64,000 nt of DNA from an uncultured Pseudomonadota bacterium (GTDB lineage: Bacteria; Babelota; Babeliae; Babelales; JACPOV01), in contig CAZUJC010000001.1 of NCBI GenBank assembly GCA_964620245.1, positions 436 through 64,435 of the forward strand, given 5' to 3'. The notes beneath the pieces were generated by a model that saw nothing but the letters and a program-made list of their open reading frames with translations, made no database searches and was not told the DNA's origin. Each line of letters starts with the position of its first letter. Within the stretch, counting starts at the first letter, position 1. This document shows, one piece after another, positions 1 to 46,390 of this stretch. A program made the translations under genes and the position numbers.

Positions 1-652
1 CAAGCGGTTCTTGCGGTGCATTTACGGTCAAACGAAGAGCAGATAAGAAATCGAGTCTATAAGCAAATGCATCTTGTACTACTTGAAGTACTCCATTCTC
101 GTCGGGCACTTGTTCATTTTGAAGGCGACGAACCGAATCAAGATCACCATCTTCAAAGTCAGCACAACAACTGTCAAGTTCTACCCCAATATCACGAAAC
201 GGAATATCGGCACGCACACCAATTCGGTATTGACACTCACACCCGACTGTTCTGTCGATTGTCAGACCAAAAAATGCGCCCCGTTCATCGTAACTTATGC
301 GCGGGGAAATAACCGAAATTGATAAAAACGGATTGAGCGGATCAATGGTTCCAGGAGCAAAGGCATCTATCCCCAAAAAATCCGGCGAACCAAAAATAAC
401 GCCCGTTAATGGTTCTGTATCCAATGTTTCTGCATTTTTGAATGCACGATGCGCGGATCTGAAATAACCAGCTCCCCATGCATCTACGTTCCAGCAGCTT
501 TCCTCATCTTTTGGTCTAGGATAAGGATAATGCCAGTAACCCCATTGCAACGCAAGGGGGTTACGAATTTCACGAGCCACTAAATCGGTTACAACCGATA
601 ACCCGACGAGCACTGCTATTATCAGGCGGTGCCAGGTAATCTGTTTCTTCAT
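1..652 (-). CDS. Putative outer-membrane/secreted protein, N-terminal 217 codons only (3' end lies beyond the left window edge)
   Basis: Missing from the ORF track because no stop codon lies in the window. Hand translation of the minus strand from ATG 652-650 stays open to nt 1: MKKQITWHRLIIAVLVGLSVVTDLVAREIRNPLALQWGYWHYPYPRPKDEESCWNVDAWGAGYFRSAH...ISPRISYDERGAFFGLTIDR... An AAGGAG Shine-Dalgarno (revcomp of 658-663) lies 5 nt upstream. The N-terminus looks like a signal peptide and aromatic/Gly-rich strand-like segments follow. Plus-strand ORFs 16-312 and 74-322 overlap it and are judged spurious. Confidence 0.6.
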   Translation of the reverse strand, partial: MKKQITWHRLIIAVLVGLSVVTDLVAREIRNPLALQWGYWHYPYPRPKDEESCWNVDAWGAGYFRSAHRAFKNAETLDTEPLTGVIFGSPDFLGIDAFAPGTIDPLNPFLSISVISPRISYDERGAFFGLTIDRTVGCECQYRIGVRADIPFRDIGVELDSCCADFEDGDLDSVRRLQNEQVPDENGVLQVVQDAFAYRLDFLSALRLTVNAPQEPL

Positions 653-699
653 TCTGCTCCTTCTTTACAAGAAAAATTCAATTTAATATCTAGCATCAA

Positions 700-3600
700 T
701 TACGAACCACGAATTGCAACGACATTATTAATGTTGCCCGTTCCATTATCAATATTAATATTAGCGGCACCCGAAGCAGCGATATAATTGTAAGCAAACG
801 GATCGGCTGATACACCACTCAAAAAGCGTGTATACGGGGTGCGTATAATTGCATTATTTATCACATAACCAAGCGACAATACATTCAAATCAGTAAATGC
901 CGCATTTGATTTTGGTGATGAATATGAAACATGATTTCGTGTTACTAGATAATTAAATAATGCAGTCGGTGTTACTGCTGTTGGTTGTGGCGGTTGCGAC
1001 GCATCATTTAAAAGATCTTTTGAAGAAAAGAGACCAACGGTGAGTGAGCTATTTACTACACCAGAATAACCGGTAACCGTTGGTGTCAATTGAACACCCA
1101 GACTTGGAGCTCTCAGTAAAGTTCTCAAATCAACAAGATGAGATTCATCAAGCGACGCAAAACCTGAACGACTGCAGCAATAGCTATCAATCAGCTCACG
1201 CCCACGCATGATTTCATCATCACTCATCGTTTGTGGCTGATTAGTTTTAAGCAAGGTTTCAAGCAGCGCTAAAATCAATGGACGAACTTGATCTACCGGA
1301 ACAACAATAGATCCCTGCTCTGCTCCTAGAATTTGAGACAGTACTGTTTGCGCTTTTTCAGCTAACTCAATACCTTGTTGTTCTGTTGAGGTAATGATGA
1401 TATCTGCTGGAATAAATTCTTGAACAAAATCAGAAATGCGTTCTTCAATACTAATACAATTTTGCATTTGGATCATGTTTCCGCCACCCAAAATATTTGA
1501 CACTATCGGGTCAAAATTAAAGGTAAACGAAGTTCCAGGACCAACCGCAAGTAACGAAGCGAGGTCAAAGTTACCCGAGAATATTTGACTGTGGCGGAAT
1601 GTACCTTCATTAACGTTTATGGTCACATTTCCTACTGTAGCCAGACACCCAACAGTCCATTCGTTTGGAATACCGCTTGGACGCGCCACCATTCCCACAC
1701 CAAATCCTACAAACCCTTGTCTATTGATTTGGAATACGGCACCGATGCCATCAATTGAGAGATTAAAGTTGACTGCTTCGCCTTCAAGAAGTGTATTACC
1801 TACTTGGAACACACCACCCGGCTCTTCATCATTACCAACCTCAAAGCGAGCTTGATCGTTAAGAGTCATATTAATAGTAGTGATTGTTGTGCATGAAATG
1901 TCATTTTCGATGCCCAAATAAGTATTCGCATGAACCAACCACTGGGCAGATTCATTCAAAATGATATTTCCACTACCGCTTATTTTAACTCGTATTGGAT
2001 CAAGATCTGAAACTGATGCGCCAATTTGTTCTGCGACATTCAGTACACGTTCAAGAGAGACTGAACTGTTGTCAGTAAAGACAACCGTGCCGCCACCCAT
2101 AATCATACGGGCACCTGGTTCAAACACCAGCTGCAATTGTCCTGCAAACTCAATAATTTGATTTGGATTCGTAAATCCTGAAAGATCAAGAACACCAGTA
2201 TTGAGAATGCGCAGCTCTTTTGGATCATCAGAGTGGAAGGTTAATGTTTGCGGACCGTTCACGGCAAAATCTGGACCGGGAACAATATGGCATACGTTAT
2301 TGATAATTATATCTTCATTAACTTCAACTGTGCCACTACCATTAGCACATAATGTCACACCATTAATGCCAAGAACTACTGATGCTGAAACAGAATCAAC
2401 ATTACGATGAGCTGTGCTCAATCCAACACGTCCTGCATTTTGAAGCACAATAAATCCAACTGGCGCTTCGGCTGTGTTACATCCAAGTAAGAACACTAGT
2501 TCACGAATATTGCCACCATTAACAAGAAGATGTGCTTGATCACCGATTCGTGATCGTTTTATTTGGAATTGATTTACGGTACCTTCAACCGATGGTAACG
2601 CTTGCAAATTCGCGCGCGTCACTGGTGGACAGAAACAAGCACTCGGTGTGAATACTGGTTCAAACGGCACAAAGCTATTGCTTCCTACATAGTCCTTCGT
2701 TACTGCACCCCAATCCATTGTAAAGTCTGATAAATCTTGCGATGCAGGAATCAGAACTCGCTGACCAGATTGTGTTAAATCAATCTTCCACTGAGTAATA
2801 CCAACACGATTACGGAAATTGACTTGATTTTCAGGTAAATCAATTACACCATTTCTGCTTCGAACTACCATTGTCGAGAAGTTTGCAATAGCCAGGCGGT
2901 CTATAGTAATGGTTCCGTTTTTATCAACGAAAATTCCACCAGATCCAGTTGTGCCACTTGTTTCAGGCAAACCCAAGAAGCCACCATGCGTTTCGAATGA
3001 GAAATAATCGCCAAGTATTAATACCGATGGCGTTGTAACTAGCGTTATTCCATCTGGTCCCGTATCGCCATCTGTACCGATCGAAATATTACTCTCATTG
3101 CCCAAGAAAATAGTATGAACCGAAAATTGATTTGCAATCGCTGTTGGTGTTGAAATACCTTCTGTTATGCACGAGCTATTTGAGCTCACATCGAGCGAAA
3201 GTTTATGCACAGAAGGATCAATTTGAGCTGTTAATTGGAAAATATCTAAATGTGAATCTTTGCTAATAAGTTGGCCACCATTGGAAAGTGAACCTTCGTT
3301 TGTTCCTAAAATAACATAGCGACCGTACGCATTATCAATCAATCTACCATTACCATAAAATCTAAAGGTGCTTGCGTTTCCATCAATTTCGTTTGGAATA
3401 TATAAATCAACTCCAGTAAAACCTGCACCTGTATTAAAACGGATAAACGAATTAACAAACGCCATTGTTGGTCGTGGTTGTTCCGTAGGCAGACAAACTT
3501 CGAACGTTTCGCCACCAATGTACGTTGGTTCAGAATTTATTGGTGTAGATCCCAAGTTATCGCGTTCAAGAATAATATGATTCTGATCAGTATGCATCAA

Positions 3601-5217
3601 TGATGTATTATTAAAGGTAATCAAATTATTTACGATAACGCCGCCACTGTTGTAACGTAACAAGTTGCCATTCACATCTGTTGCAAATGTTCTTTGAGGA
3701 AATTGAGTTTCTGTTGACTCTGCAAAAACTGAACAGCCAGTTGGAGTTACCGCAAGTGAAAGCACATTTAAGCCACTGTTGCCTCCACCAATGGGGCCAT
3801 TAATTTCCAACTGCCCTTCAACATCTAATACCAGGTTGCCAACACCGGGTGTCATTTCGTCCGGGTTAACAGTAAACGAAAGAATTGTATCACCACCGAT
3901 GGTAAACGATTCCTCAAATTCACCTAAATTATTACATCCTGAGCGCAAGTAGATTGCTGAAGGACTACCAAAAAGAATTGCTGCAGGAATAGCTAATCCG
4001 TTTTGATTCCCATCAACCACAAACGCTGACGGATTTCGTTCTTTAATAAAATCTTCAACGCTCGTTGCATCGCCATTTGCAATAGCTAATTGAATACGTG
4101 TTTGTACCGCTGTTAATGGAGTAAATACTTGTGGAACTTTATTTATGCTGGTGCCAATATAATTAAGATAGGTTAGATTTTGTAGTACTAATTCTCCATT
4201 TGCACTTAACACAAAACCGGTTTGGGTGCCAGTTACTGCAAAAGAACCATCACAAAATGGATCTTGCAAATAATTTGTTAACGTTAAATTGCTATTGATT
4301 ATGGTGAGTAGTGAAGGGGTTCCAGTTCCAGAATTTGCATTTCTAATCTGCATGGTTGCTTCTTCACCAGCAGGAATAGCTAATGCAACATCAGTAATCA
4401 TAAAGTTAGGTTGATTAAGACCGCCAGGTGCCGTAATTAAATGGCCCATTATGTTCATACATGCTTGATCATCAATACGCAAAATGAAATAGCCCGTTCC
4501 GGTATTTGACGGATCAAATGCGACGATGCCCAATTCAGTTGCGCCCGCGGCAACTGGAGTTTCAGCCATAAACGTTAAATACGATTTAGCACCAATTTGA
4601 ACTTCAGCATTTTGACCAAGCTCAGCTGGACCAAATGTACCAAGTGGTTGGAAACGACTAAATAAAACAGTTGGAATTGAACCATTTTGCTGAGCAATAT
4701 AGAATTTTGTACCACCACTTGTTGGCAATGAACTGAAGGTAAGATGTTGATCACCTTTGATGAAAAAGTTGATCGTACCACCACCCGAAGCGGTCACTAA
4801 TAAATCAAGTTGATTTGCACCGTTTGCAGTTCCACGGAAAAGCAAGTCATTCTCAACTTCAAACGTAATTGAACGACCAACCGGGGCAAATAAATACAAC
4901 CGCGCAGGATTTGTTGGAACACCATCTGCTCGATTACCGGATCCTGTAATAACCGCATCACCATTGGTAATGGTAACAACAATATCGCAAGTATTTGCTC
5001 TTACACTAATACCATCTACAAGTGCATTGGTACCAATCACATCAATATCTTGATCAACAACATCTGTGAGCACGCCAGAGCTAAAGCCGACTCCATCGCT
5101 CAGGTTATGCCACAACACCGTTGGGCCAGCACAAGGCGCACCCTGTACATTTTGGGAAAGTATCGCACAAAACACAATTAAAATTTTTTTTGCCAACTGA
5201 TTGGCATTATTCTTCAT
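700..5217 (-). CDS. Giant secreted repeat-rich surface protein (beta-helix/Pmp-like passenger), function unknown
   Basis: 1505-aa ORF. The ATG at 5217 is preceded by a GGACGAGGAG purine tract. Signal peptide MKNNANQLAKKILIVFCAILSQNVQG/AP. Composition is Gly/Asn/Thr/Ser/Val-rich with recurring GG-x3-4-F...N segments (GGGTINFFIKGDQHLTFSS, GGGTVVFTDNSSVSL, GSGGIFVDKNGTITID, PGGVFQVGNTLLEGEAVNFNLS). There is no C-terminal aromatic barrel signature (it ends ...NNVVAIRGS). Confidence 0.8.
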   Translation of the reverse strand: MKNNANQLAKKILIVFCAILSQNVQGAPCAGPTVLWHNLSDGVGFSSGVLTDVVDQDIDVIGTNALVDGISVRANTCDIVVTITNGDAVITGSGNRADGVPTNPARLYLFAPVGRSITFEVENDLLFRGTANGANQLDLLVTASGGGTINFFIKGDQHLTFSSLPTSGGTKFYIAQQNGSIPTVLFSRFQPLGTFGPAELGQNAEVQIGAKSYLTFMAETPVAAGATELGIVAFDPSNTGTGYFILRIDDQACMNIMGHLITAPGGLNQPNFMITDVALAIPAGEEATMQIRNANSGTGTPSLLTIINSNLTLTNYLQDPFCDGSFAVTGTQTGFVLSANGELVLQNLTYLNYIGTSINKVPQVFTPLTAVQTRIQLAIANGDATSVEDFIKERNPSAFVVDGNQNGLAIPAAILFGSPSAIYLRSGCNNLGEFEESFTIGGDTILSFTVNPDEMTPGVGNLVLDVEGQLEINGPIGGGNSGLNVLSLAVTPTGCSVFAESTETQFPQRTFATDVNGNLLRYNSGGVIVNNLITFNNTSLMHTDQNHIILERDNLGSTPINSEPTYIGGETFEVCLPTEQPRPTMAFVNSFIRFNTGAGFTGVDLYIPNEIDGNASTFRFYGNGRLIDNAYGRYVILGTNEGSLSNGGQLISKDSHLDIFQLTAQIDPSVHKLSLDVSSNSSCITEGISTPTAIANQFSVHTIFLGNESNISIGTDGDTGPDGITLVTTPSVLILGDYFSFETHGGFLGLPETSGTTGSGGIFVDKNGTITIDRLAIANFSTMVVRSRNGVIDLPENQVNFRNRVGITQWKIDLTQSGQRVLIPASQDLSDFTMDWGAVTKDYVGSNSFVPFEPVFTPSACFCPPVTRANLQALPSVEGTVNQFQIKRSRIGDQAHLLVNGGNIRELVFLLGCNTAEAPVGFIVLQNAGRVGLSTAHRNVDSVSASVVLGINGVTLCANGSGTVEVNEDIIINNVCHIVPGPDFAVNGPQTLTFHSDDPKELRILNTGVLDLSGFTNPNQIIEFAGQLQLVFEPGARMIMGGGTVVFTDNSSVSLERVLNVAEQIGASVSDLDPIRVKISGSGNIILNESAQWLVHANTYLGIENDISCTTITTINMTLNDQARFEVGNDEEPGGVFQVGNTLLEGEAVNFNLSIDGIGAVFQINRQGFVGFGVGMVARPSGIPNEWTVGCLATVGNVTINVNEGTFRHSQIFSGNFDLASLLAVGPGTSFTFNFDPIVSNILGGGNMIQMQNCISIEERISDFVQEFIPADIIITSTEQQGIELAEKAQTVLSQILGAEQGSIVVPVDQVRPLILALLETLLKTNQPQTMSDDEIMRGRELIDSYCCSRSGFASLDESHLVDLRTLLRAPSLGVQLTPTVTGYSGVVNSSLTVGLFSSKDLLNDASQPPQPTAVTPTALFNYLVTRNHVSYSSPKSNAAFTDLNVLSLGYVINNAIIRTPYTRFLSGVSADPFAYNYIAASGAANINIDNGTGNINNVVAIRGS

Positions 5218-5351: not shown

Positions 5352-6431
5352 CTAAAGTTTTATCGCCATCCAAAGTTCGTTAATCGTATCTTCAGACATC
5401 AATTGTCGAAAGAAATGCAATTGATCAACATTTTGTTGATAGGCAGAAATGAGTTGTTGAGGAGCATTAACATTTTGTAAAAAAGGTATGAGCTCTTGAG
5501 TTGCGGGTATAAATGGATATTTATCAAAATGGTGCTTAAGAATTTTTTCTTCAAATAGAAAGTTAATAAATTGATACACTTCATTGTCACGATGCGTATT
5601 TGCAGCTATCACTAAGCTATCAACAACTAAGAAACTTCCTTCTTGCGGAATAATAAAATTAATTGCAGAATCACTTTTAAGCGTTTCGACTATAAATGCG
5701 CTGCCCATAACCGCAACTGAACATTGCTTGGAACGCAATAAATAATCGGCTCGAACATCGCCATCTACATACGCTTCCACTCTTTTTCTTTGTTCAAATA
5801 ACAACGAATATACATCTCGTTGTTGCTCAGAACTGAGTTGCTCAACAGTGCCAAACAAATAGTACGCAGCCAAAGCTATGCCTTCTCGTGCAGAATTGAG
5901 CATCGTTACTTTTCCTGGCCCCGCTGAATCAAAAATTAATTTCCATGAAGGCGTAGGCGGTTGTGTAAATGCATCATTACGAACACCAAGACCATAGACA
6001 GCCCAATGATAAGGAATAGTATATTTATTTTCGGGATCATAATAGGGATTAAGTAAATGAGGATTGAGTCGCTGCCAAAAATTAAGCTTAGTTCTGTCAA
6101 TCGGTTTAATTAATCTGTTCTGAATAAGTTTCTCAATAACATAGTCTGATGGAATTACTAAATCAAAACCTTCACCGCGACCCGCAAGTAATTTTATAAA
6201 GAGCTCTTCATTATTTTCAAAAAACCGTAATTTAACAGTAATTCCAGTTGTAGCTTCAAATTTGCTTAACAATTCTGGATCGATCAAATCGGTCCACGTA
6301 AGAACCGTAATTGTTTTTTTATTTTCAAAAAACTTCATCGTAGGTGCATACAAAAAACAGCAGATTATTAAAAACCAAAAAAGAGTCATCACACCGCGCA
6401 CCATAAATCGATTGAACAATTGATGTATCAT
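5352..6431 (-). CDS. potD: Spermidine/putrescine ABC transporter substrate-binding protein
   Basis: PotD/PotF-family sequence (FDLVIPSDYVIEKLIQNRLIKPID, YTIPYHWAVYGLGVRND) with an N-terminal hydrophobic anchor. It is the last gene of a potA-B-C-D ordered cluster. ATG at 6431 preceded by GAGAGGAA; the ORF-track start is the GTG at 6434. Confidence 0.85.
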   Translation of the reverse strand: MIHQLFNRFMVRGVMTLFWFLIICCFLYAPTMKFFENKKTITVLTWTDLIDPELLSKFEATTGITVKLRFFENNEELFIKLLAGRGEGFDLVIPSDYVIEKLIQNRLIKPIDRTKLNFWQRLNPHLLNPYYDPENKYTIPYHWAVYGLGVRNDAFTQPPTPSWKLIFDSAGPGKVTMLNSAREGIALAAYYLFGTVEQLSSEQQRDVYSLLFEQRKRVEAYVDGDVRADYLLRSKQCSVAVMGSAFIVETLKSDSAINFIIPQEGSFLVVDSLVIAANTHRDNEVYQFINFLFEEKILKHHFDKYPFIPATQELIPFLQNVNAPQQLISAYQQNVDQLHFFRQLMSEDTINELWMAIKL

Positions 6432-6443
6432 CACAAGTTCCTC

Positions 6444-7229
6444 TCAAAAAAGCTTGGCGCGAATTTTACTTGATGCAAGCAGCAGAATCAAAAAACTACT
6501 CACAACAAAAAGTACTGTTGAAAGTGCATTTAAAGTAGGAGATACACCGGTTCTAATAGTTGCAAAAATATACAGCGATAATGTTTGAACAGAGCTACCT
6601 GCAAAAAAGAAAGAGAGTAAAAAATCATCCAGCGAAATAATAAATACCAACAGCGTTGATGAAATAATTGCGGGCATCAGTAGAGGTAATATTATTTTCA
6701 TAAACGTCTGATTAAGCGATGCACCTAAATCAAGAGAAGCCTCTATCAAACTAGAATCAATTTCTTTAAATCGCCCCGAAAGAAGCGGTACAACATACCC
6801 CAACCCTAAAATTGTGTGTCCAACAATCAGCGTCACCAAACCTAATGGCACAGCAAAAAACGTAAAAAAAGTAAGCAATCCAACTGATAAAATAATTTCT
6901 GGAACCATGAGATTTGCAAAAAAAGAGGTTAATAAAACTTTCATTTTTGATTGAGCACTATAAAAAACAAAAAGTACTCCTAGAAGTAAACTTAAGAGAG
7001 CAGAACCCGTTGCAACAATAAGCGAATTTTTGAACGCATCCCAAATAACGGGTGATTGCATTAATTCAGAATACCATTTGAGAGAAAATGAATGCCATGT
7101 ATAGGGGAAAACAACGCTATTAAATGAAAAAATTATGAGAACCGCAATCGGCACATATAAAAAAACATATGTAGTTGCAAGAATAAGCGACAATACATAA
7201 CGAGAAAAAAATCCTTCATTCATCAACAC
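6444..7229 (-). CDS. potC: Spermidine/putrescine ABC transporter permease
   Basis: Six-TM permease with the EAA loop EASLDLGASLNQTFMKIILPLLMPAI. Position in the pot cluster supports the call. The start is ambiguous (GTG 7229, TTG 7226, ATG 7223). Confidence 0.85.
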   Translation of the reverse strand: MLMNEGFFSRYVLSLILATTYVFLYVPIAVLIIFSFNSVVFPYTWHSFSLKWYSELMQSPVIWDAFKNSLIVATGSALLSLLLGVLFVFYSAQSKMKVLLTSFFANLMVPEIILSVGLLTFFTFFAVPLGLVTLIVGHTILGLGYVVPLLSGRFKEIDSSLIEASLDLGASLNQTFMKIILPLLMPAIISSTLLVFIISLDDFLLSFFFAGSSVQTLSLYIFATIRTGVSPTLNALSTVLFVVSSFLILLLASSKIRAKLF

Positions 7230-7241
7230 GTATGCACCCTT

Positions 7242-8111
7242 TCACCAGCGATGAACTAATCGCTTGAGTATCCAATTAAGAACAAAAATTGTTAAAAGCA
7301 ATGCAATTCCACTCACGCAGGTAAATGCGGCACCTTTTTCAAGTTCTAAAGCATTCAAAACATAATATGAAATTGCTGTTCCCACAAAAACATATTTATC
7401 GCCGCCCATCAAAAGCGGAATAGCAAATTCACCAAACGTAAGAACAAATACTAAAAAAAATCCGGTACGAATTCCGGGCCAACTCAGTGGCAAAATGACG
7501 CGTAAAAACGTTTGCCGTTGCGTTGCTCCTAAATCGGATGAAGCTTCAAGCAAATTTTTATCAATTTTTTCTAAAGCATTAATAATCGGCATAATCATAA
7601 ATGGCACGTAGCAATAAAACATAACGATGCCAATTGCAAAAACATTATTAAGAAGTCCGATTGGTTCATTAATAAGCCCAAGCCTTAAAAGAAACATATT
7701 AACCAAACCATCTCGCTCTAATATGAAAAACCATGCATAAACTAAAATTAAAAGATTGGTCCAAAAAGGCACCACCAAAAAAAACAACAGAATCTGTTTG
7801 AATCTTCCTGCACGGAACGCCAAATAATATGCTACGGGATACGCAACCAATAAACAGCTGCTCGCTACTGCAATACCGAGTAAAAGAGAGTTAGCAATAA
7901 TATGCAAATGTAAAAAATCAAGAACTCGACCGTAATGTTTAAGCGTAATTATTAACGATGAAACCAGTGCAGACCGGTCAACAAAGCTAATAAAAATCAT
8001 TACTGCTAATGGCAAAAACAAAAATAAAAACTGCCACAACAATGCTGGAATGGAAAAGAAAAAAGGTAGCTGTGTGGCAAAGAGTAGTTTAATTTTGTGG
8101 AATGTGCTCAT
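7242..8111 (-). CDS. potB: Spermidine/putrescine ABC transporter permease
   Basis: Permease with the EAA loop EASSDLGATQRQTFLRVILPLSWPGI. The ATG at 8111 forms an ATGA overlap with the potA stop. The ORF-track start at 8144 would overlap potA by 37 nt. Confidence 0.85.
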   Translation of the reverse strand: MSTFHKIKLLFATQLPFFFSIPALLWQFLFLFLPLAVMIFISFVDRSALVSSLIITLKHYGRVLDFLHLHIIANSLLLGIAVASSCLLVAYPVAYYLAFRAGRFKQILLFFLVVPFWTNLLILVYAWFFILERDGLVNMFLLRLGLINEPIGLLNNVFAIGIVMFYCYVPFMIMPIINALEKIDKNLLEASSDLGATQRQTFLRVILPLSWPGIRTGFFLVFVLTFGEFAIPLLMGGDKYVFVGTAISYYVLNALELEKGAAFTCVSGIALLLTIFVLNWILKRLVHRW

Positions 8112-9205
8112 CGTTCCAATAACACCGCGTTTTCTTTTTGCCAATATAAATATACTTGATTTGCATAATCGATTACTTCGCGAGCAAAATGTTCTTCATT
8201 TTGTTCAAATACATGTATTAAATAATCATTTTGTAATCGCACATTATATTGTGTCGATCGCCCATGATACACAATTGATTCTACAGTACCGGTTACGTGA
8301 TTGGAAAAACCATCTACCGGTTTTTTACTAATCAAAATTTTTTCAGGACGCAAACTCATAAATGCTGATTTACGTTCAACCATCGACTCTTTTTTTTCTG
8401 GAACAAATACACGAAAAATTCCCAAATGGTCAATTTCAATCGTGGCTTCTTGCCCTTCGACAGAACGCACAACACCCTGCATCAAATTGGTAGTTCCAAC
8501 AAATTTGGCTACAAAAGACGAGACCGGAAATTCGTAAATTTCTTTTGGTGTTCCGATTTGTTCAATCTGACCATCATGATTCATAATTGCCATCTGATCA
8601 GCAACAGTAAGCGCTTCAAATTGATCATGCGTTACATACACAAATGTTGTAGCTAATGTGCTTTGCAATTCAATCAATTCCAGAAGCATTTTTTCGCGCA
8701 ACTTCAAATCAAGAGCCGCAAGCGGTTCATCGAGTAACAATACATCAGGCTGATTTATCACTGCACGCGCTAGCGCCACACGTTGCTTTTGTCCACCAGA
8801 AAGTTGATAGATAGATTTATAGATGTGCTGTTCTAAATGCACGGTTTTTAAAATTTTAATAACACGTTGTTCAACAATGTCCGCCGGTAAATCCTTGACT
8901 CGTTGACCGTACGCAACATTATCGTACACGTTCAAATGCGGAAAAAGTGCGTAATTTTGAAAAACGGTATTGATTCGACGCTTATTAATTGGTGCATCGG
9001 TAATGTCTTCATCACCAACCAATATTTTGCCACTGTCAACTTTTTCAAACCCTGCTAACAATCGCAAAATTGTCGTTTTGCCACACCCACTTGGCCCCAG
9101 TAGCGCAAAAAATTGCCCTGAAGGAATAGTTAAAGTGAGATCTTCAAGAATAGTTTCGCCTTCATACGATTTTTTTACGTTTTCGAGCCGAATGCTCTTT
9201 GTCAT
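8108..9205 (-). CDS. potA: Spermidine/putrescine ABC transporter ATP-binding protein
   Basis: Walker A GPSGCGKTT, ABC signature LSGGQKQRVALARA, Walker B LLLDEPLAALD, and a C-terminal TOBE-like extension. It is the first ABC gene of the cluster. Confidence 0.9.
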   Translation of the reverse strand: MTKSIRLENVKKSYEGETILEDLTLTIPSGQFFALLGPSGCGKTTILRLLAGFEKVDSGKILVGDEDITDAPINKRRINTVFQNYALFPHLNVYDNVAYGQRVKDLPADIVEQRVIKILKTVHLEQHIYKSIYQLSGGQKQRVALARAVINQPDVLLLDEPLAALDLKLREKMLLELIELQSTLATTFVYVTHDQFEALTVADQMAIMNHDGQIEQIGTPKEIYEFPVSSFVAKFVGTTNLMQGVVRSVEGQEATIEIDHLGIFRVFVPEKKESMVERKSAFMSLRPEKILISKKPVDGFSNHVTGTVESIVYHGRSTQYNVRLQNDYLIHVFEQNEEHFAREVIDYANQVYLYWQKENAVLLER

Positions 9206-9882
9206 GCTTTCTCCGACCGCGCAACAAATACCGGAATAATAATGTCAGCTAGCGTGCATGGTATCACAACTGCGATAATTAACAAGATAAATAATGGACC
9301 CATATATGGATACCAATTTGTAAAACCCTCAGACACCATATAAAACAGTGCTGCTAGCGAGCTTGCAAAGATATGACCAACATGAGTAATGACCGTGTAT
9401 GAAGAGCGGGCGCGCGGTCCACTTTTACTAATAATCAGCCCATTGAGCAAACCAATACCTAAAAATGGTACTACGTTACGCAACTCAGAGCCTAAGCAAA
9501 TATGAAAGCGCATCGAAACGCCTAAAAGCCTGCCGGCCAAATAGGGCATAATAATATCAGACAGCGTACAGAAGAAAAGTGCCGAACAAAGCGCAACAAA
9601 AAAACCGCGCATCAAATTGTTAGAAAATTTTGAAAATGTGATTAAAGCACCACTTGCCGCAAATACCAAGTGAACAAAGTGAAAGCTATGAAAAAGAATA
9701 TGAGTACCACGCGTAACAACTGAGCTATCACCGCGTAACAACCCAAAAAACTCAACCAAGCTCAGTACGACAATACCAAGTGCCACTGAAAAAATCGCAT
9801 AGGGCAGATGGCACATCAATTCGCCAATCAATGTCCCATCATGATGTTCGTGATCGTGCTGGTCTTTTAGATGATGTTCCAT
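9202..9882 (-). CDS. Polytopic membrane protein with a His-rich N-terminus and an internal two-fold repeat (possible metal/cation transporter)
   Basis: The N-terminus MEHHLKDQHDHEHH has 6 His in 14 residues. There are about 6 TM segments. A motif is duplicated 104 residues apart: FFCTLSDIIMPY and IPCTLADIIIPVF. His clusters HILFHSFHFVH and THVGH precede each copy. AAGGAA SD upstream. The stop overlaps the potA ATG (ATGA at 9202-9205). Confidence 0.7.
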   Translation of the reverse strand: MEHHLKDQHDHEHHDGTLIGELMCHLPYAIFSVALGIVVLSLVEFFGLLRGDSSVVTRGTHILFHSFHFVHLVFAASGALITFSKFSNNLMRGFFVALCSALFFCTLSDIIMPYLAGRLLGVSMRFHICLGSELRNVVPFLGIGLLNGLIISKSGPRARSSYTVITHVGHIFASSLAALFYMVSEGFTNWYPYMGPLFILLIIAVVIPCTLADIIIPVFVARSEKA

Positions 9883-10012: not shown

Positions 10013-12901
10013 CTAGAATGCATATCCAAGTGTTAAAAACCAAGAATACAAATGTTCTTCCGGCTCTCTTTTGCGCCATTTCCAGCCAATATCAAATCTC
10101 AGTGGCCCAATTGGCGTTTGATAACGCAAACCAAATCCGGTTGACCCAAGCAATGCGTTACCATCAACGATGCTTACTGGTGCTCGTGAAAGCAAAATAC
10201 CAATATCCTCAAATACCGCTCCCCATAATCGTTGTATGATCGGAAAACGAAACTCAACATTAGCGTTAAACACAAAACGTCCACCCTGCGGAACTAAATA
10301 AGATCTTCCCTTTTCATCAATAAAACAACCTAAAGGCGGAGCCAAATCTGGCGCGTAGCCACGCAATGAATTTTCGCCGCCCAGATAAAACCGATCAATA
10401 GGCATGATATTCTCAAACTGTCGGCTGAAAATGTACCCAAACCGTATATGAAACCCCAACACCGTACGCCACAATGGGACAAAGACCGCCTCTTCTAATA
10501 AAAATTTAAAAAAAGGCACACCATTTTTATCAAATGGCACCATTCCTTTACCTGTAATAACAGTCAGCGACCCAGAATGTGGATTCAATTTGTCATCAAG
10601 ACAATCGATAAAAATATTAGGCTCAATGTATCCATAGGGAACTAATTTATCAATCAGCACCGGTTCAAAATTGATTGCCTGTGCCAGCTCAACCGAAAGA
10701 TGATTAGTTTCAACAAATTCGATTCCTGCATTTAATGCCAACTCGCGTTTATCTGCGCTATAAATTAGTCCAATCATTCCTCCTTGCTGACGAGCTTGAT
10801 ACAAGGGTTTTGCAAGACCAAGCATAACCGGTTGCATGTAGGTATTATTATACCCTTTTAGTATTAAGTTGATTGGTAAACCTAAAAACCACGGCCGGCG
10901 ATAAACGCCTGCAAAATTACTATAAAATCGAGTAACATCAATATCAAGACGCAACATATCAGCATAATTAAACGGATTTTTAATCAACAAAGACCCACCC
11001 AATTTATAAGTAGGACCGCTCCTAAATGCAAAATTTTTACTCACTTGTTGAAATCCCGCGCGAACTCGAATTTCATAGGGATCATCATGAATCAGTTTTA
11101 GGAGTACCGCCTTTTCTTTCTCATCTTCAGGTGCAGTATCGCCGTGAGCATAAATTGTTTCAAATACTTCCAGTTCTCTTAATTTTAAAAATGAGGCGCG
11201 TACTTGCTCTTTGTTCCATGGATCACCTTTTTTATAGCTCATTGTTTTTTGCAAAAGCGAAAAGGGCAATGTTGTTGCTCCAAGTAGTACTGTTTTACCG
11301 AATTTAACCTGAACATTGCAACTGGAAACATGCCACACAATTTTGGTCAAATCACCATCAAAAATAATCTCATATCTCAGCTGGACTGATAAATAGCCAC
11401 GCTGTTGAAAATAGTTCAGTAACCATTTTTTTTGATTATTCAAAAGCATTTGAGATAATGGTACCGAATTTCCCATATTAATTGCCTTGAAAGGCCCACT
11501 ACGCTCCAATTGTTCAAATTGATCTATGCACACTTGATCGATCATTGTTTGCACACCTTCGCTGATACTCACATTCAAACGATACTTATGTGCTGAATTT
11601 GTAAGCACGAATTGTTGTTGAACAATTTCAACGTTGCTAAATCCGTTTTCTTGATACCATTTAATAATCTCAGACAATCGCTGCTTTATAGTATCAACAT
11701 CAACAGAGCACTCTTTTTTAAATTTTTTGAAAAATTTTTTGCGTAGCCATTCTGGAGTCGTATGCTGTACGCCATCAAAATCAATTGTTGCTAACTGTGC
11801 ACGAACACCTTCGTTGATAACAAAAAAACAACATTGACCTTCTGCTTGAACATCAACTACAACTTGCCAAAAACCTTTAGAGCGATAACGCTCAACAATT
11901 TCATCAACAATTAATGAAAGCGGTACCAAGTCAGCCGAACGACCAAATGTTGCACATTGTTCAATCAGGTCTTTTGTTGAAAAAAAATTGTTGCCAAAAA
12001 AAACAAATCGGCGCTGAATACCAATTTTTACCTTGAATTGTAAATCAACGGTATAATTTTCCTGGTTAATAGAGGTAGAAAGCTCAATTTGAGCATTAAC
12101 ATATCCTTTTTTTGCTAAGTAATCTTTAATAGCTTGCGTCTCTTGATTTATTGTGCGAGTTGCACAATAGGCTGATGCAATTTTATAGGTTGTCCGTTTT
12201 CGTAATTTGTCTATCAAACGAGCATGTTCATCATCTAAATCTTCTCGATCAATTTCGACAGAAACATTTTTGACCAAAAAACGAACGCCTGGTTTTAAAC
12301 AAACGACTGGTGTCACTAACTTTGCGCGATAATCGTATAAAAAATAATCATCTACATCGGCTGCATAATAGCCTTCATCTCGCAACTCTTTTTTTATTTC
12401 ACCGATAAAGTGTCGATGTTTATTAATATCAAATGGTTCACCTTGTTCCATCATATATAAGTGTCGATACGTATCTTTTCCAATAAATACACCATCGAAT
12501 TTTACTTTGTGAAATGTCCAAAAAGCAGCTAATGCAAAATGTAAGTGATATCCCACAGCAGATTGCTGATCAATTTTTAACAATATCGATTCAAATTTAT
12601 TTTTCTTTTTTAAATAGAAGACTGCTTTTTTAATCTGCTCAACCGTAACAAAACTGTTCTCAGGCAAATCAATAAGATACCGAAATTCTTCTTGTGCAAA
12701 AACACTGTCAGTTTCATACGTAATTTTTTCAACAAAAATCGGTTGTGTGAAATGCTGCTCCAATTGCTCAAACGTCAACTCTCCGTGCGCAAGAACTGTC
12801 AGATCTGAATACCCATGCGCAATGGTTGTAAAAAAAAAGATAATAGAATAAAAAAATAAAGCACGGCAGTACAACACAGTTTTCCCAAAAATATTTCGCA
12901 A
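10013..12901 (-). CDS. bamA: Outer membrane protein assembly factor BamA (Omp85 family), unusually long
   Basis: 962 aa with a hydrophobic N-terminal signal, a long N-terminal region of repeated POTRA-like units, and a C-terminal barrel carrying the Omp85 motif LGGENSLRGYAP and a terminal ...WFLTLGYAF (C-terminal Phe). The only start available at the ORF top is TTG 12901. Confidence 0.85.
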   Translation of the reverse strand: MRNIFGKTVLYCRALFFYSIIFFFTTIAHGYSDLTVLAHGELTFEQLEQHFTQPIFVEKITYETDSVFAQEEFRYLIDLPENSFVTVEQIKKAVFYLKKKNKFESILLKIDQQSAVGYHLHFALAAFWTFHKVKFDGVFIGKDTYRHLYMMEQGEPFDINKHRHFIGEIKKELRDEGYYAADVDDYFLYDYRAKLVTPVVCLKPGVRFLVKNVSVEIDREDLDDEHARLIDKLRKRTTYKIASAYCATRTINQETQAIKDYLAKKGYVNAQIELSTSINQENYTVDLQFKVKIGIQRRFVFFGNNFFSTKDLIEQCATFGRSADLVPLSLIVDEIVERYRSKGFWQVVVDVQAEGQCCFFVINEGVRAQLATIDFDGVQHTTPEWLRKKFFKKFKKECSVDVDTIKQRLSEIIKWYQENGFSNVEIVQQQFVLTNSAHKYRLNVSISEGVQTMIDQVCIDQFEQLERSGPFKAINMGNSVPLSQMLLNNQKKWLLNYFQQRGYLSVQLRYEIIFDGDLTKIVWHVSSCNVQVKFGKTVLLGATTLPFSLLQKTMSYKKGDPWNKEQVRASFLKLRELEVFETIYAHGDTAPEDEKEKAVLLKLIHDDPYEIRVRAGFQQVSKNFAFRSGPTYKLGGSLLIKNPFNYADMLRLDIDVTRFYSNFAGVYRRPWFLGLPINLILKGYNNTYMQPVMLGLAKPLYQARQQGGMIGLIYSADKRELALNAGIEFVETNHLSVELAQAINFEPVLIDKLVPYGYIEPNIFIDCLDDKLNPHSGSLTVITGKGMVPFDKNGVPFFKFLLEEAVFVPLWRTVLGFHIRFGYIFSRQFENIMPIDRFYLGGENSLRGYAPDLAPPLGCFIDEKGRSYLVPQGGRFVFNANVEFRFPIIQRLWGAVFEDIGILLSRAPVSIVDGNALLGSTGFGLRYQTPIGPLRFDIGWKWRKREPEEHLYSWFLTLGYAF

Positions 12902-44873: not shown

Positions 44874-45323
44874 ATGTTGAACTTTTGTTTAGCACCACTT
44901 TTTTACAGCATGCTTTTGGTATTTCTTTTAATTGATTTATGTGCATGGCATTTATGCGCATTCCCTATTGTACAATTAGTGTGGTGTCTGTTTTCGGTTG
45001 CACTCTTTTCGCATAGCACCATTACGCGCTTGTGCATAACATTTACTGTTTTGTGTATGGAGCTATTTATTAGCATTGGTTCGAGTGGAGAATCAACCGC
45101 TTTGCTCATGTCTTCAGTTTTATGGATTGTGCCATTTTTGACATTTATTAATCATTCTCTTGAGTTCTTTCCCTATGCATTTAGTGTCAGCTCACTTTTA
45201 ATTTTTCGCACGTTTTGCCAACCATTGTGGCTGATTGAGTCGACTCTTGTGGTCTATACAATTGCACAAATTTTTGTTACTCTTATAAGTGTACGAATTC
45301 TTTTGAAATATAGGTCCATTTAA
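44874..45323 (+). CDS. Polytopic membrane protein, function unknown
   Basis: 149 aa with about 5 hydrophobic segments, preceded by AAGGGAGAAT. The stop codon abuts or overlaps the 5' end of RNase P RNA. MreD-like size and topology, but no motif supports that call. Confidence 0.5.
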   Translation: MLNFCLAPLFYSMLLVFLLIDLCAWHLCAFPIVQLVWCLFSVALFSHSTITRLCITFTVLCMELFISIGSSGESTALLMSSVLWIVPFLTFINHSLEFFPYAFSVSSLLIFRTFCQPLWLIESTLVVYTIAQIFVTLISVRILLKYRSI

Positions 45324-45661
45324 GGCAATCTAGACAATCGCTTGCTGTTTTAACCAGATGAGCAAGAGGAAAGTCCGGACTCCAAAACGAGAAAAGCACC
45401 TTAGAAATTAAGGGGGGCGCAAGCCCATGGAAAGTGCCACAGAAAAAAACCGCCTGTAATAGGGTAAGGGTGAAAATGTGCGGTAAGAGCGCACACGTGT
45501 TATTAGCAATAATAGCACTGGGGCAAACCCTGCTTGGAGCAAGACAAAATAGGCACGAACGGTTTTCGTTCCGGTTATTACGTGCGGGTATGTCGCCTAG
45601 AGAAATGGTTGTCATGTGGATATTTTATATCCGCAACAGAATCCGGCTTATTGATCGCCTT
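45322..45661 (+). ncRNA. rnpB: RNase P RNA, bacterial type A
   Basis: Universal elements are present: GAGGAAAGTCCGGAC (45366-45380), ACAGAAAAAACCGCC, GGGTAAGGGTGAAA, GTGCGGTAAGAGCGCAC, GGGCAAACCC and ACAGAATCCGGCTTA (45636-45650). P1 forms by pairing AAGGCAATC (45322-45330) with GATCGCCTT (45653-45661). The ends are approximate to a few nt. Confidence 0.92.
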
Positions 45662-45691
45662 AAGTGGACCTTTTCTATCCAAGTGCTTCCT

Positions 45692-46390
45692 GTGAAAATC
45701 AAATCATTTTTATGGACGTTTCCCTTTCTCTTTTTCATTCTGGGCTATACAACACTTTCATTTTTACGCGGTCAACAACAACTAGCTGCTCCAGCTCTCA
45801 TCGGCCAAACAGTTGCCAACGCAACGCTGATTTTGGCACAGCACCATCTTAATTTTCGTATACTTGCCCAAAAAGAAGACAACGATCTTCCGCATGGAAC
45901 TATTTTGAGCCAACTACCATCTGCTGGTAAATTAATGCGGCTCAATCAATCTGTTTTTTGTGTTATTTCAAAAAAAACTAGCTCCATTCCAGCACCAAAT
46001 TGTGTTGGTATTTCTCTTGCAAGCGCTCAAAGTTGTTGCGCTGCTCTTTCAATTACTCCACATATCTATTATGTTCCTAGTTTTTTACCTGCAAATATAT
46101 GCATTGCTCAATCACCTGATTTTGGAGAATCAATAAATGACCGATCAATTATGTTGTATTGTGCTGCACCAAGTTCTTCATTAATGATTATACCTTCATT
46201 CATTGGAGTATCGGTCAATGATGCACTTTCTGCTCTTGAGTTGTATCAAATTAAACCGCTTGTTATGCATGCAAAAAATCATGCACTTTCTGGTACAAAA
46301 AATAAATACACCATAGTCGAACAAAAACCTCTTGCTGGATCGATTTTAGATATTAATAGTCTGCACACCATGCAATTCTTGGTTGAATAA
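45692..46390 (+). CDS. Membrane-anchored protein with three PASTA domains and no catalytic domain
   Basis: After an N-terminal TM (FLWTFPFLFFILGYTTLSF) come three roughly 65-aa PASTA-like units (APALIGQTVANATLIL...GTILSQLPSAGKLMRLNQSVFCVISK; PAPNCVGISLASAQSC...CIAQSPDFGESI; IPSFIGVSVNDALSAL...IVEQKPLAGSIL). The start is GTG 45692 or 45683. The ORF-track start at 45434 lies inside rnpB. Confidence 0.6.
   Translation: MKIKSFLWTFPFLFFILGYTTLSFLRGQQQLAAPALIGQTVANATLILAQHHLNFRILAQKEDNDLPHGTILSQLPSAGKLMRLNQSVFCVISKKTSSIPAPNCVGISLASAQSCCAALSITPHIYYVPSFLPANICIAQSPDFGESINDRSIMLYCAAPSSSLMIIPSFIGVSVNDALSALELYQIKPLVMHAKNHALSGTKNKYTIVEQKPLAGSILDINSLHTMQFLVE

Follow-up and report, generated by a model that had tools for sequence, protein, structure and literature searches.

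A very large exported protein that carries no outer-membrane barrel of its own raises the question of how it would reach the cell surface, or be held there. Such a protein is encoded near one end of the stretch of DNA analysed here, 64,000 nucleotides from an uncultured bacterium of the Babelota lineage (assembly GCA_964620245.1, contig CAZUJC010000001.1, positions 436 to 64,435; hereafter the window). The gene for this 1505-residue protein, which we call the cargo, is followed on the same strand by a gene for an outer-membrane barrel. Together they form an outer-membrane module of two genes, conserved throughout the phylum Dependentiae (TM6). The results below establish the conserved adjacency of the genes, a C-terminal cassette common to different cargos, the signal peptides, the beta-signal of the barrel and, as modelled, the two folds. 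We give an even chance to the reading that the cassette-bearing protein has in this barrel its own translocator or anchor in the outer membrane, comparable to FapF or to a type V system acting in trans.

Conservation of the gene pair

The original prediction had made its case depend on the pair recurring in related genomes, and this was borne out. A species-level scan (one genome per species) recovered the large gene at 41 loci, with 32-87% identity and in every case from a metagenome-assembled genome (MAG) of Dependentiae type. At 40 of these 41 loci the large gene is closely followed, on its own strand, by a barrel homologue, and the exception is a 4.9-kb contig that ends right after the large gene. 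Closer relatives have a syntenic block in the order BamA, a 226-aa gene, potABCD, the large gene, the barrel gene and MetRS. The potD gene is found just upstream at 33 of the 41 loci, the pair is kept at 7 loci without potD, and at some loci with the pair MetRS has been moved or inverted. Two such pairs are present in one MAG (L022 and L033). In the fetched loci, about 1 Mb in all, a same-strand open reading frame (ORF) bearing the C-terminal cassette lies directly beside each barrel gene, except at L034, L046 and L083, where one gene intervenes, and at L013, which has a second, tandem barrel gene. The tandem barrel-family genes of L013 (12098-13888 and 14548-16386) stand behind a single large gene.

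These data bear on an alternative in which there is no specific partnership: a general porin or major outer-membrane protein would lie beside an independent surface or periplasmic protein, and the two would be neighbours by regional synteny. The syntenic block from BamA to MetRS in closer relatives would fit this view, as would the size of the barrel family (693 clusters at 50% identity) and the strong correlation of pairwise distances among all three proteins compared, that is cargo, barrel and PotD (0.84-0.90). The pair survives changes in its flanks, however, as the 7 loci without potD and the displaced or inverted MetRS genes show. Its spacers are short and its genes are on the same strand, each barrel gene in the fetched loci has a same-strand cassette gene beside or near it, and a different type of cargo with the same cassette adjoins divergent barrels in three other contexts, described below. 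The distance correlation is 0.90 for cargo against barrel; the partial correlation of cargo and barrel given PotD is 0.65, against 0.33 for cargo and PotD given the barrel. These figures are suggestive only of a link between cargo and barrel. On this evidence we regard mere neighbourhood as very unlikely.

Several loci depart from the standard layout. At L034 (5185-6552) and L046 (3850-5255), which belong to one sub-lineage and lie in assemblies with runs of N, the gene between the large and barrel genes encodes a coiled-coil-rich protein of 285-455 aa with a signal peptide, which may be a third, periplasmic component. In a long-read MAG (L007 and L021; contig_50856, 712 kb) the large and barrel genes are both split into several short ORFs. 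The upstream BamA gene and the gene for the ATP-binding cassette (ABC) transporter ATPase are likewise split in this MAG, and the breaks are therefore probably assembly frameshifts rather than signs of pseudogenes. The contig of P0015 (JGI 3300050821) has four consecutive genes for 433-514-aa proteins with PF13229 Beta_helix matches, one of them also with NosD, between the barrel gene and MetRS.

The barrel and the cargo

The barrel gene is separated from the cargo gene by a spacer of 47 nt (653..699, minus strand). The spacer contains a Shine-Dalgarno sequence, AAGGAG, at 657-662, 4 nt ahead of the ATG at 652-650, and a terminator scan found no terminator-like hairpin in it. The gene itself (1..652, minus strand) is open to base 1, where it is cut by the window edge, leaving its 5' 37% in the window (residues 1-217 of about 581). 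Its product starts with MKKQITWHRLIIAVLVGLSVVTDLVA followed by RE, which by eye resembles a signal peptide (575-652). That a gene with its own Shine-Dalgarno sequence and signal peptide runs from 652 to the window edge had been read from the sequence at the outset, and this reading is confirmed, with 217 aa inside the window. In a 96%-identical relative the full-length gene encodes 581 aa and the protein ends in ...WYLGLVIYF.

The 217-aa fragment missed its own family when used as a query, a failure of the search, and the full-length homologue P0029 (about 90% identical to the fragment) was used instead. An indexed search returned 83 matches. With a full HMMER scan the family grew to 693 clusters at 50% identity, of which 368 scored E <= 1e-30. 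Among the 150 of these clusters that were listed, every protein stands alone, with a length of 373-712 aa and mostly of 560-700 aa. Pfam scans of 77 family members gave noise only (best E = 4.5e-4, to DUF6662, in 1 of 77), with Omp85, ShlB and POTRA matched by 0 of 77 at E <= 1, and an NCBIfam scan of the family gave no match. An aromatic residue (F, Y or W) closes the protein in 70 of the 77. The general hallmarks of an outer-membrane barrel are thus present: a signal peptide, a C-terminal aromatic beta-signal and a BamA-like gene in the window.

An AlphaFold2 (AF2) model of P0029, built from the 77-sequence alignment, has a mean predicted local distance difference test (pLDDT) value of 91.8 and a predicted template-modelling score (pTM) of 0.85. 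A Foldseek search of this model against the PDB gave 155 matches at E <= 1e-3; the 50 listed are all outer-membrane barrels, and none of these 50 is an Omp85 protein. The best E-value is to FapF, the Pseudomonas functional amyloid transporter (E = 1.4e-9, target-normalised TM-score (TMt) 0.62-0.70, probability 1.00), and the highest overlap is to a COG4313 channel (4rl8, TMt 0.78). The barrel of the autotransporter EspP is also matched (E = 1.5e-6, TMt about 0.55), and barrels of other sizes fit worse (14-stranded FadL, TMt 0.31-0.36; 16-stranded porins, about 0.3). The original prediction had called the downstream protein barrel-like from its truncated translation, and the full-length gene, taken from relatives, supports that call. 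On the model, the protein belongs structurally to the 12-strand class of FapF, COG4313 channels and autotransporters, and it has the PTG hallmark. In the first PTG motif P394 and T395 are each kept in 76 of the 77 members; position 396 is G or A, with G in 56 of 77. A second motif, P[L/T]G, follows 15 residues on (P409 in 60, T410 in 29 and G411 in all 77 of the 77), and after it N412, N413, H415 and E417 are invariant or nearly so.

DSSP assigns 13 long beta-segments to the model, which we read as 12 barrel strands (residues 119 to 579) and one N-terminal segment. The N-terminal region of about 90 residues contains a long beta-segment (54-71) and may act as a plug. An alpha/beta insert of about 160 aa (200-361) would be placed in extracellular loop 2. 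This topology assumes that the PTG loop is the beta5-beta6 loop, the equivalence of the PTG motifs to those of FapF being taken from DSSP strand order. By the same reading, the fragment in the window would run from the signal peptide through the plug-like N-terminal region and barrel strands 1-3 into the large extracellular insert.

The cargo gene (700..5217, minus strand) is a single ORF of 1505 codons that encodes a beta-helical exported protein and includes the stop codon at 700-702 (TAA, read 702-700). The translation starts with MKNNANQLAKKILIVFCAILSQNVQG followed by AP, and these first 26 residues (5140..5217, minus strand) are by eye a Sec-type signal peptide with a positively charged n-region, an h-region of about 10 residues and a cleavage site between VQG and A; no lipobox was seen in it by eye. 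The protein ends in ...AIRGS. Gly, Asn, Thr, Ser and Val make up 42.8% of its residues and Lys only 1.3%, acidic residues outnumber basic ones by 137 to 70, and there are 19 cysteines, several of them conserved. The coordinates, signal peptide, C-terminal end and gene calls given in the original prediction were correct, as was its remark on the composition; both genes lie on the minus strand.

A homologue search found 27 full-length relatives of the cargo (1036-1505 aa, 41-96% identity). Every one comes from a MAG of Candidatus Babeliales/Dependentiae (TM6) and is labelled 'hypothetical', and 0 of 27 has a Pfam domain. Pfam (E <= 1) and NCBIfam searches with both window proteins gave 0 matches, and profiles of the two families had no match among PDB sequences, the barrel profile finding nothing below E = 1.6. 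The cargo has diverged as much as the housekeeping protein PotD (mean p-distance 0.63 for each). The original prediction had proposed an adhesin or S-layer-like role; divergence no faster than that of PotD does not fit a fast-evolving adhesin under host selection, as far as sequence distances can tell.

AF2 modelling of the cargo covered residues 306-1505 only (pLDDT 77, pTM 0.54). DSSP shows short strands up to about residue 1250, that is a short-strand solenoid. The core of this beta-helix (residues 27-1029; 2131..5139, minus strand) consists of short strands with pLDDT mostly 70-90 and is highly conserved in the family alignment (A1), where numerous polar residues are invariant. Foldseek matches of the cargo model to the PDB are weak (best E = 0.014, TM at most 0.25), and almost all are right-handed beta-helices, chiefly passengers of autotransporters and two-partner secretion (TPS) systems: Ag43, IgA1 protease, Hap, UpaB, EspC, SepA, Hbp, pertactin, Fap2 and EtpA. 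The matches also include some tailspikes and polysaccharide lyases. The structure check is consistent with the earlier view of a Sec-exported protein of beta-solenoid type without its own barrel, for the model is a short-strand solenoid and its C-terminus has no beta-signal. A TamB/AsmA-like periplasm-spanning lipid-transfer protein with a barrel partner was also considered; it was ruled out by the short h-region signal peptide in place of an anchor, and it is further countered by the composition, the short three-strand coils and structural matches that are all right-handed beta-helices.

A passenger-like beta-helical fold, a Gly/Asn/Thr-rich composition and a neighbouring barrel that resembles the EspP beta-domain would also suit another explanation: a chlamydial-Pmp-like autotransporter adhesin or S-layer protein, or a classical autotransporter split by a frameshift or an assembly error. 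The cargo had indeed been described as Pmp-like, on the strength of recurring GG-x3-4-F...N segments. Neither description withstood closer analysis. GG.{3,4}F gives 4 overlapping matches at 2 sites, against a shuffle mean of 1.6, and as many or more turn up in 49 of 500 shuffles; for FxxN the count is 9 against an expectation of 6.6, and 92 of 500 shuffles attain it. GGA[ILV] occurs 0 times in the cargo, and the Pfam family Chlam_PMP (PF02415) has no match in it at E <= 1. The segments are thus not above chance, although the GGG and GSGG spots cited for them are conserved positions of the family: in A1, six of them are invariant (G145, G147, F151, G758, G760 and F763) and four nearly invariant (G1042, G1043, G1244 and G1245). 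Internal repeats are weak at best, as profile-profile comparison of 100-aa segments of the family alignment gave one match of 37% probability, between residues 1025-1058 and 1228-1261.

Membership of the Pmp family is thereby refuted. As to a split gene, the second gene comes with a Shine-Dalgarno sequence, a start codon and a signal peptide of its own, and PF03797 is also without a match. An assembly error is excluded because the two-gene layout recurs in 40 genomes. Type Va autotransporter barrels are not known to have an N-terminal region of about 90 residues or a 160-aa loop insert, and the Dependentiae barrel has both. This whole explanation is therefore hardly credible.

The C-terminal cassette on two kinds of cargo

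The last 470 or so residues of the cargo are a conserved C-terminal cassette, made of the final helix coils and a small alpha/beta end domain and interrupted in this clade by a helical insertion. Part A (residues 1030-1260; 1438..2130, minus strand) comprises the last beta-helix coils and is the most confident part of the model (pLDDT 85-95); its conserved motifs are PGGxxQ[VI]GN, QGF[LV]G[FL]GVG, a Trp and ILGGGN. The variable, helix-prone insertion follows (residues ~1261-1375; 1093..1437, minus strand), with pLDDT < 50 and no consensus in A1; the low-confidence helices of the model span residues ~1257-1368. Part C (residues 1376-1505; 703..1092, minus strand) is a small alpha/beta domain with pLDDT 80-93, which ends in ...AIRGS without a beta-signal.

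The helical insertion is missing in many family members, for example those of 1277-1400 aa in L034 and L046. Because it has no consensus in the family alignment and is absent from many members, this stretch is, to judge from the alignment, a clade-specific insertion and not a conserved linker. The final 300 or so residues had been singled out as helix-prone in the original prediction. This holds for residues ~1257-1368, albeit at pLDDT < 50, and fails for the last ~125 residues, which are confident alpha/beta; nor is a helix-prone tail a defining feature, since many relatives do without it.

The cassette is not confined to the giant cargo. The most divergent barrels (P0113, P0114 and P0115, about 30% identity) are not beside a large gene. 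They adjoin, directly or with one small gene between, genes for signal-peptide proteins of 775-827 aa with an N-terminal PF00756 esterase domain, at three independent loci (L011, L053 and L083). The end of the large protein has its homologues in the C-terminal halves of the esterase proteins (BLASTP, E = 2e-35 for residues 1038-1382; a second match, E = 6e-16 for residues 1079-1253). A hidden Markov model (HMM) of cargo residues 1030-1260 matches all three esterase proteins (E = 7e-52, 2e-48 and 8e-39), and one of residues 1376-1505 matches the C-termini of two of the three (E = 1.4e-10 and 1.5e-10). The cassette alignment (A4) has 15 invariant columns, including GGxxQxG, Gly in the QGFLGLGVG stretch and GGG, and its Trp is nearly invariant.

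In about 1.3 Mb of fetched Dependentiae DNA and the window, no other cassette ORFs were found except frameshifted pieces of the same genes. A metagenome scan with two esterase cargos was driven by the esterase domain, its matches being mostly unrelated esterases, and it added a single locus, nearly a duplicate of L011. Pairwise scores do not support the esterase-type barrels as one co-diversifying clade.

One C-terminal cassette is thus common to two kinds of cargo, and both kinds have a member of one barrel family encoded next to them. This argues that cassette and barrel work together, since the arrangement would be hard to explain otherwise, and the shared cassette appears to us the strongest evidence for a functional partnership.

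A small gene also accompanies the esterase type. At L083 (4280-4684) a 134-aa signal-peptide protein is encoded just upstream of the barrel gene, and its match to the HMM of the large-protein core (E = 5e-10) covers the N-terminal ~55 residues of that core; L053 has a counterpart ORF, likewise of 134 aa (7600-8004). At these two loci the N-terminal beta-helix cap seems to be a separate small protein.

Possible routes across the outer membrane in Dependentiae

Recognition of the cargo, the direction of transport and translocation through the barrel are what we infer from these results. Both proteins would cross the inner membrane via Sec, and the BamA encoded 5 kb upstream would insert the barrel into the outer membrane. 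The barrel would then recognise the cargo by its C-terminal cassette and let it through to the cell surface as an unfolded chain that emerges with its C-terminus in the lead. Once outside, the cassette would nucleate folding of the beta-helix, as the autochaperone region does in type Va systems, and FapF would offer a like case for separately encoded substrates; the cargo may afterwards stay docked on the barrel. Emergence of the C-terminus first and nucleation of folding would suit a cassette that consists of the terminal beta-helix coils at the C-terminus.

The closest precedent is FapF (PDB 5O65/5O67; Rouse et al. 2017, PMC5557850). This 12-stranded barrel exports unfolded polypeptides that are encoded by genes of their own, and the authors of that study compare it with type Va barrels. 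As in our pair, a stand-alone barrel of the 12-stranded class is encoded in an operon with separate Sec-exported substrates, two PTG-type motifs flank one extracellular loop, and an N-terminal segment ahead of the barrel could plug it. In FapF the motifs are at the base of the beta5-beta6 extracellular loop, and Pput2725, a COG4313 channel, is reported with the first motif only (PMC5557850). The Fap system is further marked by an N-terminal periplasmic coiled coil, trimer formation, the FapD protease and the amyloid substrates FapB/C/E. Pfam and PDB-sequence profile searches detected no sequence homology between FapF and the Dependentiae barrel, the model of the latter is without the long N-terminal helix and periplasmic coiled coil, and it has a 160-aa insert in an extracellular loop. 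The Dependentiae cargo is a 1505-aa beta-helix or an esterase, whereas what FapF exports are amyloid subunits of small size. The neighbours of the barrel gene are potABCD, BamA and MetRS, with neither a FapD-like C39 protease nor any other fap gene nearby.

Pput2725 (PDB 4RL8) is a 12-stranded barrel with the first PTG motif, and it gave the highest structural overlap (TMt 0.78). It is, however, an importer of hydrophobic compounds with no protein partner, and at about 270 aa it is far shorter than the Dependentiae barrel of about 580 aa. This likeness allows a second reading of the pair, as a docked enzyme and an uptake channel. The barrel would be a COG4313/FadL-like importer of hydrophobic or host-derived molecules, and cassette proteins exported by a type II secretion system (T2SS) would dock on its extracellular insert and feed it substrate, by a logic like that of SusCD or TbpAB. 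Apart from the TM-score and the common PTG motif, the insert of about 160 aa, located by a topology read from the DSSP string, could dock a partner, and the alternative cargo is an esterase. The pair stands behind a same-strand ABC importer cluster (potABCD) at 33 of the 41 loci, and the beta-helix core, with its many invariant polar residues and its slow divergence, looks more like part of an enzyme or binding protein than of an adhesin. TM6 genomes also are without lipid biosynthesis, and all of them encode a T2SS (PMC4776705). On the other side, FapF has the better Foldseek E-value, and the barrel family has both PTG motifs as FapF does, Pput2725 being reported with the first alone. A C-terminal cassette of terminal coils is what export and folding from the C-terminus would predict. 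The pot genes are missing from 7 loci with the pair and from all esterase-type loci, and Pfam, NCBIfam and PDB-sequence profile searches detected no enzymatic family for the beta-helix core. We consider uptake unlikely, though far from negligible.

Comparison with other secretion systems leaves the pair without a ready place. Like type Va autotransporters (EspP, Ag43, pertactin), it has a barrel that resembles the EspP beta-domain, and its cargo may be a passenger-like beta-helix, to judge from weak structural matches. The conserved end of the cargo is in a position analogous to the autochaperone region, and an esterase cargo is possible there too, as in EstA (PMC5557850). In type Va, however, cargo and barrel are one polypeptide; here they are separate, each with its own signal peptide. 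There is also no PF03797 match and no conserved alpha-helical linker, and the Dependentiae barrel has extra N-terminal and loop domains.

TPS systems (type Vb; FHA/FhaC, EtpA/EtpB) likewise have a two-gene cargo-barrel operon and a beta-helical exoprotein with a conserved targeting module, and EtpA is among the weak structural matches of the cargo. The Dependentiae partner is nevertheless not a 16-stranded Omp85/POTRA barrel, its cassette is C-terminal where the TPS domain of exoproteins is N-terminal, and Pfam scans of the cargo and barrel families gave no matches to PF05860 or PF03865. The original prediction that the arrangement is neither type Va nor type Vb therefore stands: there is no barrel in cis, and the partner is not of the Omp85/POTRA type, its best structural matches being 12-stranded.

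In Slam (type XI) systems a DUF560 barrel is encoded beside cargo genes with a common conserved C-terminal domain. Our pair resembles them in having a dedicated barrel that adjoins cargo genes with a shared C-terminal domain. It differs in that no DUF560 or TPR match was found, 14-stranded barrels of FadL type reach a TMt of only 0.31-0.36, and the cargo is not a lipoprotein. Neither Slam domains nor the C-terminal sorting domain of type IX secretion systems gave a Pfam or NCBIfam match in either protein family.

Several points weigh against export through the barrel. The structural matches of the cargo model are weak, as given above, and the top TM-score of the barrel model is to a COG4313 importer of hydrophobic molecules. 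A passenger-domain fusion is found in none of the 150 listed of the 693 barrel clusters, and the esterase-type pairing is known from three independent loci only. The helical segment, which was considered as an autotransporter-like pore linker, is not conserved and is ruled out in that role. The 19 cysteines of the cargo would be unusual for a protein threaded through a narrow barrel; chlamydial Pmps are also cysteine-rich. TM6 genomes encode a T2SS with two copies of GspD (PMC4776705), and this system could export the cargo already folded.

The cysteines have some further features. A PCxCP motif lies in the 861-863 region of the cargo, with C861 conserved, and C976 is invariant. The barrel has clustered cysteines, CxC at 138/140 and CC at 162/163 (P0029 numbering, alignment A2). 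We speculate that those of cargo and barrel could make intra- or intermolecular disulfides, by analogy with the chlamydial outer-membrane complex.

Upstream of the cargo gene the minus strand continues with a potABCD-like ABC importer cluster. A PotD-like binding protein (5352-6434) is encoded directly upstream, followed by two permeases (6444-8144) and an ATPase (8108-9205). Beyond these are genes for a conserved 226-aa protein without a Pfam match (9202-9882) and for a 962-aa BamA-like Omp85/POTRA protein (10013-12901), all on the minus strand. Elsewhere in the window a bacterial RNase P RNA of class A was found at 45321-45666 on the plus strand (246.5 bits, E = 5e-79). Because this RNA overlaps a 318-aa ORF with a GTG start (45434-46390), at least the 5' part of that ORF is likely spurious.

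Dependentiae are widespread obligate parasites of protists with reduced genomes, and the outer membrane of Babeliales is degenerate and largely without lipopolysaccharide. No description of the cargo-barrel pair was found in the Dependentiae literature searched, and both protein families are so far without annotation in any library searched (Pfam, NCBIfam and PDB sequences). Tentatively, and with the balance of our judgement somewhat against it, we suggest that the pair is the founding example of an undescribed export pathway specific to Dependentiae, in which a 12-stranded barrel acts in trans on cargos recognised via a modular C-terminal cassette.

Because it joins a giant conserved beta-helix protein to a dedicated barrel, and does so throughout the phylum in close to one copy per genome, the module is a strong candidate for a core machine of the envelope or of host interaction. 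If the export reading is true, what FapF does for small amyloid subunits would be extended to folded cargos of 80-160 kDa, and the module would define a portable C-terminal targeting cassette, with a bearing on the long-running question of how passengers pass through narrow barrels. Export in trans by a barrel of the FapF/autotransporter class may then be the main route by which surface proteins cross the outer membranes of Dependentiae.

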